From Escherichia coli (GTDB taxonomy: Bacteria > Pseudomonadota > Gammaproteobacteria > Enterobacterales > Enterobacteriaceae), in the NCBI RefSeq assembly GCF_003334335.1, contig NZ_QOWQ01000027.1: a stretch of DNA of 64,000 bases; one strand, given 5' to 3'. The translations under genes and the position numbers were made by a program. Below are positions 42,253 through 51,512 of the stretch, in pieces. The notes under the pieces were generated by a model. The model was not told the origin of the DNA. It searched no databases and saw nothing but the letters and a program-made list of their open reading frames with translations. The first letter of the stretch is position 1; each line of letters starts with the position of its first letter.

Positions 42253-42472
42253 TGTTAACCTCTTCTGGTCTTAAAAGACAGCAACACGCCAGTAAGGTGT
42301 TGGTTCCCGGTACCCTGGTCAGGTAAGAAATGTTATAAGCCATCTCCCCGAAAGATTCAATAATCAACAGGTTATCGCTTACTATACATACAGCGTTGAA
42401 GAAAAATAAGGCAGATATAAAAAAGGCTCCACGAGGGAGCCTGATATTATTTTGTGAAATCCAGCGGCGCAT
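42242..42472 (-). CDS. ymcE: Small uncharacterised protein, 76 aa
   Basis: ORF track 42242..42505; start set at MRRWISQNNIRL. Confidence 0.6.
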   Translation of the reverse strand: MRRWISQNNIRLPRGAFFISALFFFNAVCIVSDNLLIIESFGEMAYNISYLTRVPGTNTLLACCCLLRPEEVNSEY

Positions 42473-42645
42473 GGTCAGTGCGTATTTGCAGCACGACGTT
42501 ATCAAAGGTGATCATCGTCGATTTACAAAAAATACACTTAGCGCCCAAAGGGTTTCGCTCCGTCACATCGAATGCCGATGTGCGGTACTGTGAACCATGA
42601 CAACATGGACAGCGGAAATGGAGATGTTGAGTAATAATGGCAACC

Positions 42646-42858
42646 TTAGAGCGTAACAACGTTCGCTGCCGCGGGGCCACGTTGCCCCTGCTCAATAGAA
42701 AATTCAACTTTCTGATTTTCGTTCAGCGTGCGGAATTCATTGCTCTGGATGGCGGTGAAATGGACGAAAACGTCTTTGCTGCCATCATCAGGAGTGATAA
42801 AGCCAAAACCTTTATCTGCGTTAAACCATTTTACTAAACCAGTCATTTTATTAGACAT
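42646..42858 (-). CDS. cspG: Cold-shock protein CspA family, 70 aa
   Basis: ORF track; [21 protein letters not shown]. Confidence 0.95.
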
Positions 42859-43143
42859 ATTTTACTTCCTTCATTTTGGGCCTTTCGGCAAACAGGGCTT
42901 TAATACAGAAACTACTTAGTGTTCAGGAGAGAGACTCAAAAGAAGGGGATAATGCCTGATAATGAGAACTGCTTTAGTAAACTACTTTGTATGCTGTCTG
43001 TCTTTCAAACCGACGCAGCTATTAACGCATGATAATTGAGATTAAGCAAATTTTATTTTAGCCGTCCGGCGGTCTTAAATATCGCTGGCTTTATTTTATT
43101 AACCCCGTATAGTGCAGCGCAGTATTTTCAGTAAGGAATTTGT

Positions 43144-43356
43144 TTGTCCCGTAAAATGACAGGAATTGTCAAAACCTTTGATCGCAAAAGCGGCAAAGGA
43201 TTCATTATCCCCTCCGACGGTCGTAAAGAAGTTCAGGTCCATATTTCCGCATTCACTCCCCGCGACGCAGAAGTGCTTATACCAGGATTACGTGTGGAAT
43301 TTTGCCGCGTAAATGGCCTGCGAGGACCAACAGCGGCAAATGTTTATCTCTCTTAA
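43144..43356 (+). CDS. cspH: Cold-shock-like protein, 70 aa, TTG start
   Basis: ORF track; [21 protein letters not shown]. Confidence 0.9.
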
Positions 43357-43797
43357 TATGACGCTGCTTGTTTAAAGCTGACTGGTTTTATTGGAATAGT
43401 GCAATAGTCAACATCATACATTATAACATCAGTTACTTTTCCACAAAGAAACTAATCCATTTAAGCGAATATCTCTGCACCTAATAGTTACAAATGCCAT
43501 TTAACAGCCAGTTATAGTACCACTTGAAACTATATTACCAACAATAATTAATAGCTTTCGTAACAATTTCCTTATCTTTAATTTGTATTTTGCTAAGATT
43601 TATCTTATGCTCACAAGTCGTATTTCCAGAGGGGGATAGTTAACAATCTTATATTTCCCTCTGCGCGCCTTTCCTACCCGCAGTATATAGTGCAAGCGGT
43701 ATGAGGAAAGGGAGATTTCACAAGGATGTTATACTCAAAGTAGACAATCCTGATCTCAAGCGTACGTATTGTCCATGCGATGAATAAAGGAAAAGTT

Positions 43798-44103
43798 ATG
43801 AAACACAAGCTTTCTGCAATCCTTATGGCCTTCATGTTGACGACGCCAGCTGCGTTTGCTGCCCCTGAAGCAACAAACGGGACCGAGGCAACGACGGGTA
43901 CTACTGGCACCACAACGACCACTACCGGCGCAACCACGACTGCTACTACCACTGGTGGCGTGGCTGCTGGCGCTGTCGGCACGGCGACAGTTGTCGGTGT
44001 GGCAACGGCTGTTGGTGTGGCGACGTTGGCAGTTGTTGCAGCAAATGACAGTGGCGATGGCGGTTCTCATAACACCTCAACCACCACGTCCACTACACGC
44101 TAA
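43798..44103 (+). CDS. gfcA: Threonine-rich small membrane protein of the group 4 capsule operon, 101 aa
   Basis: ORF track 43780..44103; start set at MKHKLSAILMAF; Thr/Gly/Ala-rich low-complexity body. Confidence 0.85.
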   Translation: MKHKLSAILMAFMLTTPAAFAAPEATNGTEATTGTTGTTTTTTGATTTATTTGGVAAGAVGTATVVGVATAVGVATLAVVAANDSGDGGSHNTSTTTSTTR

Positions 44104-44209
44104 TACCGCTTTAACGCGTCGAAATTAAAGTTAAATGATACCCGGTTGCGATATTCGTACCGGGCTTTAGAGATTTGCATTTTTTTAATTAACCTTTCAA
44201 GGATTAAAG

Positions 44210-44854
44210 GTGCGCCCTCTTATTTTATCGATTTTCGCACTATTTCTTGCGGGATGTACGCACAGCCAGCAAAGTATGGTCGATACATTTCGCGCCAGCC
44301 TTTTCGATAATCAGGATATCACCGTAGCGGATCAGCAGATCCAGGCGTTGCCTTATTCCACTATGTATTTACGCCTTAATGAAGGGCAACGAATCTTTGT
44401 GGTACTGGGATATATAGAACAAGAACAAAGCAAATGGTTATCCCAGGATAACGCCATGCTGGTTACCCACAATGGACGTCTTTTAAAAACCGTCAAACTT
44501 AATAATAATCTGCTGGAAGTGACAAATTCCGGGCAGGACCCTCTGCGTAACGCGCTGGCAATAAAAGATGGCAGCCGCTGGACGCGCGATATTCTCTGGA
44601 GTGAAGACAACCATTTTCGCTCTGCGACCCTGAGTTCTACTTTTTCCTTTGCTGGATTAGAGACGCTGAATATTGCGGGTCGCAATGTGCTGTGTAATGT
44701 CTGGCAGGAAGAGGTGACTTCCACGCGGCCAGAAAAACAGTGGCAAAACACATTCTGGGTCGATTCGGCTACTGGCCAGGTTCGTCAAAGTCGGCAAATG
44801 TTAGGCGCAGGGGTTATTCCCGTAGAAATGACGTTTCTTAAACCCGCACCATGA
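44210..44854 (+). CDS. gfcB: Group 4 capsule lipoprotein, 214 aa
   Basis: ORF track; lipobox LAGC. Confidence 0.9.
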   Translation: MRPLILSIFALFLAGCTHSQQSMVDTFRASLFDNQDITVADQQIQALPYSTMYLRLNEGQRIFVVLGYIEQEQSKWLSQDNAMLVTHNGRLLKTVKLNNNLLEVTNSGQDPLRNALAIKDGSRWTRDILWSEDNHFRSATLSSTFSFAGLETLNIAGRNVLCNVWQEEVTSTRPEKQWQNTFWVDSATGQVRQSRQMLGAGVIPVEMTFLKPAP

Positions 44855-45597
44855 ATAAATTACAGTCGTATTTCATTGCCAGCGTACTTTACGTAATGAC
44901 ACCCCATGCCTTTGCGCAAGGAACGGTGACTATTTATCTGCCTGGCGAACAACAGACACTTTCCGTTGGCCCCGTGGAAAATGTTGTCCAGTTGGTGACA
45001 CAACCGCAACTGCGCGATCGCCTCTGGTGGCCTGGTGCCTTGCTGACCGACTCTGCGGCGAAAGCTAAAGCGCTTAAAGACTACCAACATGTCATGGCAC
45101 AGCTTGCTTCCTGGGAAGCAGAAGCTGACGACGATGTGGCGGCAACGATTAAATCCGTGCGCCAGCAGTTACTCAATCTCAATATCACTGGTCGCTTACC
45201 GGTCAAACTGGACCCTGATTTTGTACGAGTGGATGAGAACAGCAATCCCCCGTTGGTCGGGGACTATACGCTCTATACCGTACAGCGTCCGGTGACTATT
45301 ACTCTGCTGGGTGCGGTTTCTGGGGCCGGGCAATTGCCCTGGCAGGCAGGCCGTAGCGTTACCGATTATCTGCAAGATCACCCCCGCCTTGCAGGCGCGG
45401 ACAAGAATAACGTTATGGTGATTACGCCTGAGGGTGAGACTGTCGTCGCCCCTGTTGCCCTGTGGAATAAAAGACATGTGGAACCACCGCCTGGCAGCCA
45501 GCTTTGGTTGGGCTTTTCTGCGCATGTACTGCCCGAAAAATATGCTGATTTAAATGACCAGATTGTGTCTGTTTTAACGCAACGTGTTCCTGACTGA
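44851..45597 (+). CDS. gfcC: Group 4 capsule periplasmic protein, 248 aa
   Basis: ORF track; signal peptide. Confidence 0.9.
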
Positions 45598-47693
45598 TGA
45601 AGAAGAATTCTTATCTTTTAAGCTGCCTGGCCATTGCCGTCTCCAGTGCCTGTCATGCTGAAGTATTAACCTACCCGGATCCGCTGGGTTCGTCGCAATC
45701 AGACTTTGGCGGCACAGGATTGTTGCAGATGCCAAATGCGCGCATCGCACCGGAAGGTGAATTCAGCGTCAACTACCGGGATAACGATCAATACCGGTTC
45801 TACTCCACCTCCGTGGCGCTGTTCCCATGGCTGGAAGGCACCATTCGTTATACGGATGTGCGCACACGCAAATATAGCCAGTGGGAAGATTTCAGCGGCG
45901 ATCAGTCATACAAAGACAAATCATTCGATTTTAAACTTCGCCTGTGGGAAGAAGGTTACTGGCTACCGCAAGTGGCGTTTGGTAAACGTGATATTGCTGG
46001 TACGGGTCTGTTTGACGGTGAGTATCTGGTGGCCAGCAAGCAAGCGGGGCCATTTGATTTCACCCTCGGGATGGCATGGGGCTACGCCGGTAATGCGGGC
46101 AATATTACCAACCCGTTTTGCCGGGTGAGCGATAAATATTGTCATCGCGCAGAGTCTCACGATGCGGGCGATATCAGCTTTAGCGATATCTTTCGTGGCC
46201 CGGCTTCCATCTTTGGCGGCATTGAGTATCAAACGCCGTGGAATCCCCTGCGTCTGAAACTCGAATACGATGGAAACAATTACCAGAATGATTTCGCTGG
46301 CAAACTGCCTCAGGCAAGCCATTTCAACGTCGGCGCAGTTTATCGCGCTGCCAGCTGGGCAGATCTCAACCTGAGTTATGAACGCGGTAACACGTTGATG
46401 TTTGGCTTCACGTTACGGACCAATTTCAACGATCTGCGCCCTGCCCTGCGCGATACGCCAAAACCGGCATATCAACCTGCGCCTGAATCTGAAGGATTGC
46501 AGTACACCACGGTAGCAAACCAACTTACCGCCCTGAAGTATAACGCGGGCTTTGACGCGCCAGAAATTCAGCTACGCGATAAGACACTGTATATGTCTGG
46601 TCAGCAATACAAATACCGTGACTCTCGTGAAGCGGTCGATCGTGCCAACCGGATTCTGGTGAATAACCTGCCGCAAGGCGTTGAGAAGATTAGCGTGACG
46701 CAAAAGCGCGAGCATATGGCGATGGTGACTACCGAAACCGACGTAGCCAGCCTGCGCAAACAGCTGGCAGGTACAGCGCCTGGTCAATCAGAGCCACTGC
46801 AACAACAACGTGTTGAAGCTGAAGATCTTTCTGCCTTTGGTCGGGGCTACCGTATTCGTGAAGATCGCTTTAGCTACTCTTTCAACCCAACACTTTCACA
46901 GTCGCTGGGCGGCCCGGAAGATTTCTATATGTTCCAGCTGGGGCTGATGTCCAGTGCCCGCTACTGGTTTACCGACCACCTGCTGCTTGATGGCGGTATT
47001 TTCACCAATATTTACAACAACTACGACAAGTTTAAGTCTTCGCTGTTGCCCGCGGACTCTACCCTGCCCCGCGTGCGCACGCATATCCGTGACTACGTTC
47101 GCAATGACGTTTATCTCAACAACTTGCAGGCGAACTATTTTGCTGACTTAGGCAATGGTTTCTATGGCCAGGTGTATGGCGGTTATCTGGAAACGATGTA
47201 CGCCGGTGTCGGTTCCGAGCTGCTTTATCGCCCGCTAGATGCCTGCTGGGCGCTGGGTGTGGACGTTAACTACGTGAAGCAACGTGACTGGGACAACATG
47301 ATGCGTTTCACCGATTATTCCACGCCAACAGGTTTCGTGACGGCTTACTGGAACCCGCCGACGCTCAATGGCGTACTGATGAAACTTAGCGTTGGGCAAT
47401 ATCTGGCAAAAGATAAAGGCGCAACGATCGACGTCGCCAAACGCTTTGACAGCGGCGTGGCGGTAGGGGTATGGGCGGCAATCAGTAACGTATCTAAAGA
47501 TGACTACGGCGAAGGCGGCTTTAGTAAAGGTTTTTATATCTCGATTCCATTCGACTTGATGACCATTGGACCTAACCGCAACCGCGCGGTGGTTTCGTGG
47601 ACACCATTGACGCGTGATGGTGGACAAATGCTGTCACGCAAATACCAGCTCTATCCAATGACGGCAGAGCGAGAAGTACCGGTTGGACAATAA
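45597..47693 (+). CDS. gfcD: Group 4 capsule outer-membrane beta-barrel lipoprotein, 698 aa
   Basis: ORF track; signal peptide and beta-rich sequence. Confidence 0.9.
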
Positions 47694-47738: not shown

Positions 47739-48878
47739 ATGAAAAAGAACATTTTTAAGTTTTCGGTACTGACATTGGCTGTTCTGTCTTTGACAGCATG
47801 TACCCTTGTTCCTGGTCAGAATTTATCGACCAGTAACAAGGATGTCATTGAACTACCTGACAATCAGTATGACCTGGACAAAATGGTCAATATCTATCCC
47901 GTCACGCCAGGATTGATTGATCAGTTGCGCGCCAAACCGATTATGTCGCAGGCTAACCCGGAGCTGGAGCAGCAAATCGCAAACTATGAATATCGTATCG
48001 GGATTGGTGATGTGTTGATGGTTACGGTCTGGGATCACCCGGAACTAACCACCCCCGCAGGGCAATACCGTAGCGCCAGTGATACCGGCAACTGGGTTAA
48101 CGCCGATGGTGCGATTTTCTACCCCTATATTGGTCGCCTGAAAGTGGCCGGGAAAACACTTACCCAGGTACGCAACGAGATTACAGCGCGTCTCGATTCA
48201 GTCATTGAAAGCCCGCAAGTCGATGTCAGCGTCGCGGCGTTCCGATCGCAAAAAGCGTACGTCACCGGCGAAGTCAGCAAATCGGGTCAGCAGCCGATTA
48301 CCAATATTCCTCTGACCATCATGGATGCGATTAACGCCGCGGGCGGTCTGACCGCAGATGCAGACTGGCGCAACGTGGTGCTCACCCAGAATGGCGTAAA
48401 GACCAAAGTGAACCTCTATGCGCTGATGCAGCGTGGCGACTTGCGCCAGAACAAACTGCTGCACCCGGGCGATATTTTATTTATTCCGCGCAACGATGAT
48501 CTGAAAGTCTTCGTGATGGGTGAAGTGGGTAAACAGAGCACGCTGAAAATGGACCGCAGCGGTATGACCCTGGCGGAAGCGCTGGGTAACGCTGAGGGTA
48601 TGAATCAGGATGTCGCTGATGCGACGGGGATTTTTGTTATTCGTGCAACGCAAAACAAGCAGAATGGCAAAATCGCCAATATTTATCAGCTGAATGCGAA
48701 GGACGCATCGGCAATGATACTCGGAACGGAATTCCAGCTTGAACCTTACGACATTGTTTATGTCACTACCGCGCCGCTGGCTCGTTGGAACCGTGTGATT
48801 TCTCTGCTGGTACCGACGATTTCCGGGGTGCATGACCTGACAGAGACTTCACGGTGGATTCAAACATGGCCCAACTAA
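47739..48878 (+). CDS. gfcE: Wza-like outer-membrane polysaccharide export lipoprotein, 379 aa
   Basis: ORF track 47718..48878; start set at [14 protein letters not shown]; lipobox LTAC. Confidence 0.9.
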
Positions 48879-49312
48879 AATTTAACTCAATCCTGGTGGT
48901 TTGTACCGGCAACATTTGCCGTTCGCCCATTGGCGAGCGCTTGCTGCGTAAACGTCTGCCGGGCGTAAAAGTCAAATCGGCAGGTGTTCATGGTCTGGTA
49001 AAACACCCTGCAGATGCGACAGCGGCAGATGTTGCCGCTAATCATGGCGTATCTCTTGAAGGACATGCCGGACGTAAGCTCACTGCTGAGATGGCACGAA
49101 ATTACGATCTGATTCTGGCAATGGAGTCGGAACATATTGCTCAGGTTACCGCAATTGCTCCCGAGGTCCGCGGGAAGACAATGCTGTTTGGGCAATGGCT
49201 GGAACAGAAAGAGATCCCGGATCCCTATCGTAAAAGTCAGGACGCATTTGAACATGTCTACGGTATGTTGGAGCGCGCCAGTCAGGAATGGGCGAAGCGC
49301 CTCAGCCGGTAA
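48866..49312 (+). CDS. etp: Low-molecular-weight protein-tyrosine phosphatase (CX5R motif CTGNICRS), 148 aa
   Basis: ORF track 48854..49312; start set at [21 protein letters not shown]. Confidence 0.9.
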
Positions 49313-49331: not shown

Positions 49332-51512
49332 ATGACAACTAAAAATATGAATACGCCACCAGGCAGCACTCAGGAAAATGAGATCGATCTGCTTCGTCTG
49401 GTCGGCGAGTTATGGGATCACCGTAAGTTTATTATCAGCGTGACCGCGTTATTCACGCTGATCGCTGTCGCTTACTCGCTGTTAAGCACACCAATTTATC
49501 AGGCAGATACTCTGGTCCAGGTTGAGCAAAAACAGGGCAACGCCATTCTCAGCGGCCTGAGCGATATGATCCCTAACTCATCGCCCGAGTCTGCACCGGA
49601 GATCCAACTGCTGCAATCGCGCATGATTCTCGGTAAAACCATTGCTGAACTGAATCTGCGCGACATAGTTGAGCAGAAGTATTTTCCGATTGTGGGTCGC
49701 GGCTGGGCGAGATTAACCAAAGAAAAACCAGGTGAGCTGGCGATCAGCTGGATGCATATTCCACAACTGAATGGTCAGGATCAGCAACTGACACTCACGG
49801 TTGGGGAAAACGGCCACTATACACTGGAAGGTGAAGAGTTCACCGTCAATGGTATGGTCGGCCAGCGTCTGGAAAAAGATGGCGTTGCGCTGACTATCGC
49901 GGACATTAAGGCCAAACCAGGAACACAGTTTGTCCTGAGCCAGCGTACCGAACTGGAAGCGATTAACGCATTGCAGGAAACCTTTACCGTTAGCGAACGC
50001 AGTAAAGAAAGCGGGATGCTGGAACTTACCATGACTGGTGATGATCCCCAGTTGATTACTCGTATTCTGAACAGCATCGCTAACAACTATTTGCAACAGA
50101 ATATCGCTCGCCAGGCGGCGCAGGATTCACAAAGCCTTGAATTCTTACAGCGCCAGTTACCTGAAGTGCGCAGCGAGCTGGACCAAGCGGAAGAAAAACT
50201 CAACGTTTATCGCCAGCAGCGCGATTCGGTTGACCTTAACCTGGAAGCCAAAGCCGTTCTTGAGCAGATTGTGAACGTTGATAATCAACTCAATGAGCTG
50301 ACCTTCCGCGAGGCAGAGATCTCCCAGCTGTATAAGAAAGATCACCCAACTTATCGTGCGCTGCTGGAAAAACGCCAGACGCTGGAGCAAGAACGCAAAC
50401 GCCTGAATAAGCGGGTATCGGCAATGCCTTCCACCCAACAGGAAGTGTTGCGTTTAAGTCGTGACGTAGAAGCGGGCCGTGCGGTATATCTGCAATTACT
50501 TAACCGCCAGCAGGAGTTGAGTATTTCGAAATCCAGTGCCATTGGTAACGTGCGGATTATCGACCCGGCAGTCACTCAGCCGCAGCCAGTGAAACCGAAA
50601 AAAGCGTTGAACGTGGTGCTTGGTTTTATTCTTGGCCTGTTTATTTCTGTGGGTGCCGTGCTGGCGCGTGCGATGTTGCGTCGTGGTGTAGAAGCCCCGG
50701 AACAACTGGAAGAGCACGGCATCAGCGTTTATGCCACTATCCCAATGTCCGAGTGGCTGGATAAACGCACCCGTCTGCGTAAGAAAAATTTATTTTCTAA
50801 TCAGCAGCGCCATCGTACTAAAAATATCCCCTTCCTGGCGGTGGATAACCCGGCGGATTCTGCTGTGGAAGCCGTACGTGCGCTACGAACCAGTCTGCAT
50901 TTCGCTATGATGGAGACGGAGAATAACATTCTAATGATCACCGGTGCGACGCCAGACAGTGGTAAAACGTTTGTCAGTTCAACTCTGGCAGCGGTGATCG
51001 CCCAGTCCGATCAAAAAGTGTTATTTATTGATGCCGACTTACGCCGTGGTTATTCGCATAACCTGTTTACCGTGAGTAATGAACATGGCTTGTCGGAATA
51101 TCTGGCAGGTAAAGATGAGCTCAACAAAGTGATCCAGCATTTTGGCAAAGGAGGCTTTGATGTGATTACTCGCGGTCAGGTGCCACCTAACCCGTCTGAA
51201 CTGCTGATGCGCGATCGGATGCGTCAATTACTGGAATGGGCGAACGACCATTACGATCTGGTGATTGTCGATACGCCGCCGATGCTGGCGGTGAGTGATG
51301 CCGCGGTCGTGGGGCGTTCTGTTGGCACCAGCCTGCTGGTTGCGCGTTTTGGCTTGAACACCGCCAAAGAGGTGAGTTTGTCAATGCAGCGTCTGGAACA
51401 GGCAGGCGTCAATATTAAAGGCGCTATCCTCAATGGTGTGATTAAACGCGCCAGCACCGCTTACAGTTACGGCTATAACTATTACGGTTATAGTTACTCC
51501 GAGAAAGAGTAA
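49332..51512 (+). CDS. etk: BY-kinase (Wzc-like tyrosine autokinase, C-terminal Tyr cluster), 726 aa
   Basis: ORF track; Walker A GATPDSGKT; C-terminal YSYGYNYYGYSYSEKE. Confidence 0.95.
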   Translation: MTTKNMNTPPGSTQENEIDLLRLVGELWDHRKFIISVTALFTLIAVAYSLLSTPIYQADTLVQVEQKQGNAILSGLSDMIPNSSPESAPEIQLLQSRMILGKTIAELNLRDIVEQKYFPIVGRGWARLTKEKPGELAISWMHIPQLNGQDQQLTLTVGENGHYTLEGEEFTVNGMVGQRLEKDGVALTIADIKAKPGTQFVLSQRTELEAINALQETFTVSERSKESGMLELTMTGDDPQLITRILNSIANNYLQQNIARQAAQDSQSLEFLQRQLPEVRSELDQAEEKLNVYRQQRDSVDLNLEAKAVLEQIVNVDNQLNELTFREAEISQLYKKDHPTYRALLEKRQTLEQERKRLNKRVSAMPSTQQEVLRLSRDVEAGRAVYLQLLNRQQELSISKSSAIGNVRIIDPAVTQPQPVKPKKALNVVLGFILGLFISVGAVLARAMLRRGVEAPEQLEEHGISVYATIPMSEWLDKRTRLRKKNLFSNQQRHRTKNIPFLAVDNPADSAVEAVRALRTSLHFAMMETENNILMITGATPDSGKTFVSSTLAAVIAQSDQKVLFIDADLRRGYSHNLFTVSNEHGLSEYLAGKDELNKVIQHFGKGGFDVITRGQVPPNPSELLMRDRMRQLLEWANDHYDLVIVDTPPMLAVSDAAVVGRSVGTSLLVARFGLNTAKEVSLSMQRLEQAGVNIKGAILNGVIKRASTAYSYGYNYYGYSYSEKE

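Follow-up and report, generated by a model that had tools for sequence, protein, structure and literature searches.

An uninterrupted control region with conserved stem-loops upstream of the group 4 capsule operon gfcABCDE-etp-etk in Escherichia coli

Results

The gfc locus and its upstream interval

The window, by which we mean the whole 64-kb stretch of DNA analysed here, is a segment of E. coli chromosome in which yccM, gnsA, ymcE, ymcF, cspG (minus strand), cspH (plus strand), gfcA to etk and appA follow each other. The interval studied and the genes on either side of it are the following, names and lengths of the operon genes being those given in the annotation of a near-identical genome.

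43144-43356, plus strand: cspH, open reading frame, annotated in RefSeq for a 99.9% identical genome; bounds the interval on the left
43357-43797, plus strand: cspH-gfcA intergenic region, uninterrupted, 441 bp; native gfc control region
43798-44103, plus strand: gfcA, open reading frame
44210-44854, plus strand: gfcB, open reading frame
44851-45597, plus strand: gfcC, open reading frame
45597-47693, plus strand: gfcD, open reading frame
47739-48878, plus strand: gfcE, open reading frame
48866-49312, plus strand: etp, open reading frame
49332-51512, plus strand: etk, open reading frame

The operon gfcABCDE-etp-etk is complete, all 7 reading frames being open and of the length annotated in the 99.9% identical genome. 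The original prediction held that no IS element lies between cspH and gfcA and that the operon may be expressible. The first point was confirmed, as the 441 bp are IS-free and run colinear with E. coli genomes lacking the IS, at 99.8-99.9% identity, and the second is a fair statement given the seven open frames. We conclude that the interval, whose 5′ two-thirds are A+T-rich (26-33% G+C), is the ordinary wild-type control region of the group 4 capsule operon. An intact gfc locus does not guarantee expression, however: G4C proteins were almost absent in a strain with an intact locus (PMC6128206), and the level of the gfcA transcript differed strongly between EPEC and EHEC, both intact at the locus (PMC3853201). 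The capsule additionally requires O-antigen synthesis, on which the cspH-gfcA region is uninformative.

On the other side of cspH, the 5′ UTR of cspG (42592-43014, minus strand) gave a full-length match to the Rfam cspA thermoregulator (159 bits, gathering score 78), as expected for a cold-shock gene. A weak match to the Salmonella sRNA STnc220 in the ymcE/ymcF area (42409-42489, minus strand; 34 bits) stayed below the gathering score of 60.

IS1D in K-12 and the frequency of the IS-free state

The original prediction described the K-12 gfc promoter region as disrupted by IS1, and aligning the interval with K-12 bore this out: the two sequences are not identical, as they would have to be for the prediction to fail.

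43765-43773, no strand assigned: IS1D target site CGTATTGTC, duplicated around IS1D in K-12, single copy in the window

K-12 and the window have the same locus and the same target site, and their intervals are 99.5% identical, with two SNPs besides the insertion. They differ in that both K-12 strains, RV308 and MG1655, carry a 768-bp IS1D flanked by the 9-bp duplication of CGTATTGTC, where the window has none. The element lies 24 nt 5′ of the gfcA ATG and 3′ of both hairpins described below, with the control region on one side of it and the ribosome-binding site of gfcA on the other; it separates the K-12 gfc operon from everything upstream. This agrees with PMC12428005, which places IS1 upstream of gfcA in K-12, and with the interruption of gfc by an IS in MG1655 for which PMC6128206 cites Peleg et al. 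2005. The IS1-free state of the region is therefore already known from the literature.

Among complete E. coli genomes having the site, a 71-nt probe across the insertion point was intact in 3,206 of 3,611, and a K-12-type IS1 junction probe was complete in 411 complete genomes. Based on these counts, the IS-free upstream region is the norm of the species rather than a trait of this strain, and K-12 is the exception. The absence of IS1 had thus been correctly read in the original prediction, but its notability was overstated. The insertion was also seen in the wastewater isolate ABW_A19 (NZ_CP067307.1, 5.25 Mb, locus L016, 467-1484), which is not a K-12 laboratory strain and carries IS1D at the exact K-12 site, flanked by the same duplication. 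This means that the insertion is not confined to laboratory K-12: either it belongs to a wider lineage, or the allele was moved by recombination.

About 1,800 further genomes, or about a third of complete E. coli genomes, have cspH but lack both the interval and the gfc operon. In these, cspH abuts appA, with homology ending at the cspH stop codon. In the example inspected (NZ_CM128588.1, locus L019, 701-1611) cspH runs, with this stop codon, 13 nt into the 3′ end of appA, an arrangement found in the ~1,800 genomes, and the 441-bp interval is absent together with the seven-gene operon, as a single clean unit. The interval is gained or lost with the gfc operon, and not with cspH.

Two stem-loops between cspH and gfcA

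Two inverted repeats had been announced in the interval, and both are there.

43627-43663, plus strand: hairpin 1, 12-bp stem with two G.U pairs in this allele, 13-nt loop, -16.1 kcal/mol
43668-43711, plus strand: hairpin 2, conserved outer stem of 7-8 bp, variable interior, -19.1 kcal/mol

The arms of hairpin 1 are CAGAGGGGGATA (43627-43638) and TATTTCCCTCTG (43652-43663), those of hairpin 2 CCTTTCCT (43668-43675) and AGGAAAGG (43704-43711), the conserved outer stem of the latter reading CCTTTCC(T)/(A)GGAAAGG. Neither hairpin is annotated in RefSeq. Compared to dinucleotide shuffles of the 441 bp, the count of 7-8-nt inverted repeats was not elevated (P about 0.25), and the occurrence of two with G+C-rich arms was rare (P about 0.015). 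Taken together, the two hairpins (95 nt) fold at -35.2 kcal/mol (z = -3.9), and 0 of 200 shuffles folded as well. The plus-strand fold was recovered in four lineages, including E. albertii, the cryptic clade and an O157-type allele, with z from -3.6 to -4.8, and the minus strand folded less well than the plus strand in all 3 lineages where it was folded. Across Escherichia species, both stem-loops are retained.

Across the 10 aligned sequences the arms of both hairpins stay invariant, and drift is seen in the loops and inside hairpin 2, where pairing was not significant once the outer stem was given. In the hairpin alignment, 91.7% of the cells pair, and the five variable stem pairs all vary by one-sided, G.U-compatible substitutions on the plus strand. 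Not a single compensatory double change was found in the hairpin pairs, and the structure did not score above column shuffles. These comparative data are compatible with an RNA structure, but not decisive.

Three other identities were considered and rejected. As canonical intrinsic terminators, the hairpins would have unsuitable loops (13 and 28 nt) and no T-run after them, and a terminator scan gave 0 sites. As a dispersed repeat of the REP, BIME or ERIC kind they would be expected in many copies, but occupied 1 place in the median genome and at most 2. A leader peptide encoded by the 10-codon frame at 43607-43639 has no RBS, and the frame is shifted by a 1-nt deletion in strain LD39-1. Against Rfam, the hairpins matched no family, and 43015-45000 gave no match at E<=1.

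Conservation of the interval

The interval could be aligned with those of cryptic-clade Escherichia (L003) and E. albertii (L004). For Cedecea and Citrobacter, the DNA upstream of gfcA gave no nucleotide alignment, and these genera were compared with Escherichia at the level of motifs. Two parts of the interval stood out.

43580-43635, no strand assigned: highly conserved non-coding block, from the alignments and the identities per segment
43736-43797, plus strand: putative 5′ UTR with Shine-Dalgarno AAGGA (43787-43791), from the 10-sequence alignment and identities

Identity with E. albertii is 87.8% in cspH and 65.5% in the 5′ part of the interval, of which the first ~126 nt 3′ of cspH are unalignable; it then rises to 94.6% in the block 43580-43635, and amounts to 86.5% in hairpin 1, 77.3% in hairpin 2, 95.3% in 43712-43797, 81.0% in the gfcA coding sequence and 91.8% in that of gfcB. 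Two non-coding blocks are thus under more constraint than the flanking genes, namely a palindrome (43594-43607, see below) with its surroundings, and the promoter-like motif TGTTATACT with the 62 nt that separate it from the ATG. These 62 nt (43736-43797) show 100% identity with the cryptic clade and 96.8% with E. albertii, above the gfcA coding sequence that follows (90.5% and 81%), which suggests that the gfcA 5′ UTR is itself functional. The IS1 of K-12 is located inside this UTR.

Between two invariant blocks, the 4 nt at 43609-43612 form a variable spot, differing in nearly all E. coli alleles examined (CTC, C-C, ATC, CGC and CCT, one of them with a 1-nt deletion).

An RNA 3′ end at the base of hairpin 1

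Evidence for transcription came from K-12 Term-seq data (Adams et al. 2021, PMC7815308, supplementary file 1), in which about 900-1,200 dominant ends per condition are curated genome-wide and the best peak per 100 bp is kept. Coordinates were converted using the IS1D end at U00096.3 1050545 as anchor. A dominant sense 3′ end is listed at U00096.3 1050653(-), both in LB at OD 0.4 and at OD 2.0 (PMC7815308), with AGTCGTATTTCCAGAGGGGGATAGTTAACAATCTTATATTTCCCTCTGCGC printed before the end and GCCTTTCCTA after it. This position is window 43666 (plus strand), 3 nt past the stem of hairpin 1. Its score of ~2×10^5 is of the same order as that of the 3′ end downstream of rpsT (PMC7815308). A second 3′ end, U00096.3 1050549 (window 43770), lies 3-4 nt before IS1 and was recorded at OD 2.0 only, that is in stationary phase (PMC7815308). 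Neither of the two ends is on the bicyclomycin-sensitive list of that K-12 study. The lack of a separate end at hairpin 2 is uninformative, since the tables keep a single peak, the best one, per 100 bp.

Based on the sense 3′ end 3 nt after its stem, we conclude that hairpin 1 is transcribed in the sense direction in K-12, where it defines an abundant RNA end. The Term-seq tables class the end as "orphan" and do not assign it to a 5′ UTR, since IS1 displaces gfcA in K-12 to a distance of more than 200 nt. Since IS1 also leaves the downstream RNA untranslated in this strain, the 43666 end may be exaggerated by Rho termination and trimming, relative to IS1-free strains.

Promoters on both strands

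A simple consensus scan of the region for promoters and terminators returned nothing. Mapped starts and a -10/-35 scan gave the following elements.

43675-43687, minus strand: antisense promoter inside hairpin 2, -10 TATACT (43687 to 43682), mapped TSS 43675
43579-43592, minus strand: second, weaker antisense promoter, -10 CAAAAT (43592 to 43587), mapped TSS 43579
43727-43735, plus strand: candidate proximal gfc promoter, extended -10 TGTTATACT of sigma-S/sigma-70 type, from the scan, predicted TSS ~43742

Cappable-seq in K-12 (PMC4782308) placed the antisense starts at U00096.2 1049867(+) and 1049963(+). These positions, on the plus strand of that genome, correspond to window 43675(-) and 43579(-). 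The -10/-35 scan predicts both within 1 nt (43675 exactly, and 43580 for 43579), an agreement that validates our coordinate conversion. Both read back towards cspH, and the stronger one, within hairpin 2, would transcribe the complement of hairpin 1.

On the sense strand, TGTTATACT matches a TGnTATACT-type -10 and is invariant in the 10 aligned sequences. A very strong genomic SELEX peak of the RpoS holoenzyme (U00096.2 1049830, intensity 167; PMC5493296) maps to ~43712, about 20 bp from it; the resolution of this peak also covers the antisense TATACT promoter, to which it could equally belong. TGTTATACT is positioned downstream of both hairpins, and the idea that these stand in the leader is supported only in part: hairpin 1 is transcribed according to the K-12 Term-seq data, but the best promoter candidate lies 3′ of both. 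Other sense candidates were read from the sequence, TGcTAAGAT with a TSS at ~43606, and TTGTAT-17-TATGCT with a TSS at ~43618, the last bases of the latter varying between alleles. A sense TSS for the gfc leader had no entry in the Kim 2012 supplements or in the TRS supplements, and a literature search for Rcs or RpoS control of gfc yielded nothing direct.

A third inverted repeat, ATAGTTACAAATG / CACTTGAAACTAT, 85% complementary, was noticed at 43484-43533. It brackets a hexamer (43513-43518) whose sequence is TATAGT (E. coli), TATAAT (cryptic clade) or CATAAT (E. albertii), and this conserved -10-like hexamer is a further candidate sense promoter.

A FliA promoter was also considered and rejected: the weak ChIP-seq peak centred at ~43624 is regarded as non-genuine by its own authors, and fits RNA polymerase occupancy near hairpin 1. 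As to K-12 itself, the end of IS1 that faces gfcA (L001, 2850-2900) would contain an outward promoter, TGGAGA-18-TACACT, according to a prediction in the RpoD SELEX paper, and K-12 gfcA may be weakly driven from IS1.

An RcsB-type palindrome

RcsB and RcsAB boxes follow the pattern TNRGANNNNTCYNA, the RcsAB box consensus at wza being TaAGaatatTCctA. One element of the interval fits it.

43594-43607, no strand assigned: perfect palindrome TAAGATTTATCTTA, candidate RcsB operator, fitting the RcsB/RcsAB-box pattern TNRGANNNNTCYNA

It is the only match to TNRGANNNNTCYNA, a short pattern, in the 64-kb window, where 2.2 are expected by chance, and was invariant in 10 of 10 aligned Escherichia sequences. 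A sequence of the same pattern, TAGGATTTATCCTA, was found in the Cedecea colo locus, 449-462 nt upstream of gfcA, in DNA that is otherwise unalignable; it is the only match in that locus, with 0.15 expected per locus. The pattern is absent from the gfcA upstream region of Citrobacter sp. JGM124. In the flhDC co-crystal, RcsB contacts TTAGGAA / TCTAAGA (PMC5829831), and the half-sites of TAAGATTTATCTTA match this crystallised site: as in the RcsB/RcsAB box of flhDC, the gfc palindrome consists of inverted TAAGA half-sites with a 4-bp spacer, and is a candidate site. Judging by this resemblance and by its conservation, RcsB, with or without RcsA, would bind the palindrome at 43594-43607.

Comparison with known systems

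One likeness is to yjbEFGH, a paralogous exopolysaccharide operon that Ferrieres et al. are said to have shown in 2007 to be Rcs-regulated. The yjbE promoter, GTGTATACT, stands at the same distance from the ATG as TGTTATACT, its TATACT -10 being ~60 nt before the ATG, in an RBS context similar to that of gfcA. An RcsAB-like box, TGAGGTTAATCCTA, lies far upstream, as TAAGATTTATCTTA does in gfc. The two regions differ in the distance from box to promoter (~-205 in yjbE, ~-141 in gfc), have no nucleotide homology between box and promoter, and the two G+C-rich stem-loops of gfc lack a counterpart in yjbE.

The stem-loop ends of Rho-terminated RNAs are another point of comparison; Dar and Sorek reportedly described in 2018 that such ends are protected by stem-loops. 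Like the 5′ UTR 3′ ends of Adams et al. 2021 (PMC7815308), which arise by premature termination or processing, the gfc end is abundant and is found a few nt past a stable stem-loop, in front of an operon, with no U-tract. Unlike them, it was not classed as such, and it is missing from the bicyclomycin-sensitive list. A third likeness is to JUMPStart/ops leaders, where a long stem-loop leader also precedes a long polysaccharide export operon; the gfc leader differs in having no ops element.

Discussion

Both hairpins exist as described, are conserved and are transcribed at least in part, and a function for them can be proposed. We consider it probable that the interval, as the native control region of gfc, has a transcribed stem-loop leader, a proximal promoter of sigma-S type, and RcsB acting at the palindrome. 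Sense transcription would start 5′ of 43627, from a putative promoter, and the stem-loops would in that case be part of the transcribed leader. Hairpin 1 may be a stem-loop that forms or protects an RNA 3′ end, marking either premature termination or the point where an exonuclease stops after termination further downstream; it is not a canonical intrinsic terminator, as it has no U-tract. The extended -10 of sigma-S type (43727-43735), a paralogue of the yjbE promoter, would serve as main promoter of the operon, and RcsB, alone or with RcsA, would bind the palindrome as happens in yjbEFGH, the paralogue under Rcs control. Relative to the proximal promoter, hairpin 2 covers positions -74 to -31, and given this position and the antisense promoter inside it, may act at the DNA level too.

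Part of the same evidence allows a bolder proposal, which we put forward tentatively: the interval may hold a cis-regulatory leader so far undescribed, in which a constitutive upstream promoter would produce a short, abundant RNA ending at hairpin 1, and RcsB would place read-through, or the proximal promoter, under envelope-stress control.

It is rather unlikely, in our judgement, that the inverted repeats act as DNA only, their arms serving as spaced half-sites, or as architectural elements, for regulators of the proximal and antisense promoters, with the K-12 3′ end a by-product of spurious transcription of A+T-rich DNA that terminates because of IS1. Such a role would suit the position of both repeats upstream of the best promoter candidate (-115 to -31), the mapped antisense TSS within hairpin 2, stems that are invariant rather than covarying, and an A+T-rich region with several weak promoters on both strands. 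But the arms are spaced by 30 and 36 bp from centre to centre, a spacing for which we know of no fitting dimeric regulator; the A to G and C to T changes in the arms preserve RNA pairing on the plus strand while breaking the DNA palindrome; and the 3′ end falls exactly at the base of hairpin 1.

We also asked to which gene hairpin 1 belongs. It would be improbable that it ends a long (310-nt) 3′ UTR of cspH and has nothing to do with gfc, even though cspH is on the same strand, the Term-seq tables list no 3′ end near its stop codon, and the 43666 end was left as an orphan. The ~1,800 gfc-less genomes have cspH without the hairpin, and as their homology stops at the cspH stop codon, cspH works without it. 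In E. albertii the ~126 nt after cspH are unalignable, whereas the hairpin region is alignable. Finally, the signal at 43666 reaches a level similar to that in the rpsT terminator region, which seems high for cspH.

That the repeats are functionless chance features, whose apparent conservation merely reflects the close kinship of Escherichia genomes, has a low probability in our view. The ordinary number of 7-8-nt repeats, the lack of covariation and the free drift of the hairpin 2 interior are what chance would give. It would not readily give G+C-rich arm pairs of a kind rare in shuffles, low folding z-scores in all four lineages, arms kept invariant next to non-coding DNA just 65% identical to that of E. 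albertii, or an RNA end at the base of hairpin 1.

Last, a JUMPStart/ops element placing the operon under RfaH antitermination, as in other polysaccharide operons, is hardly credible. In its favour, a GCGGTA on the 3′ side of hairpin 2 resembles the ops core, and the gfcA leader of Cedecea colo has TGCGGTAGCGCG, which agrees with ops at 10 of 12 positions and stands about as far from the ATG. But this GCGGTA is not conserved (GTGTAT in E. albertii), 43357-43797 has no match to GGCGGTAGCGTG within 3 mismatches, and the ops element GGCGGTAGnnTG, looked for in the leader, was likewise absent within 3 mismatches. In the Cedecea colo genome (L005, 1924-1962) the ops-like TGCGGTAGCGCG stands ~110 nt before the gfcA ATG, and the leader has an 11-mer, GCGCGCCTTTC, in common with the junction of hairpins 1 and 2 of E. 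coli. The gfc leader may thus be RfaH-dependent in some genera, and the ops core would either have been lost from the Escherichia leader or never have been there.

Returning to the reading we favour, a native control region with a transcribed stem-loop leader, its meaning for E. coli is as follows. A gfcA upstream region free of IS1 means that the strain has the common wild-type locus, and export of an O-antigen (group 4) capsule is possible in principle, given O-antigen synthesis and induction of the operon. The regulation of gfc is poorly described, and the interval offers several elements for it: an RcsB-type box, a sigma-S-type promoter, an invariant 5′ UTR and two stem-loops. If the more tentative proposal of an undescribed leader were true, envelope stress would, through RcsB, set the read-through into gfcA or the use of the proximal sigma-S-type promoter, and in K-12 the RNA would persist as an unannotated orphan transcript, severed from its operon by IS1.
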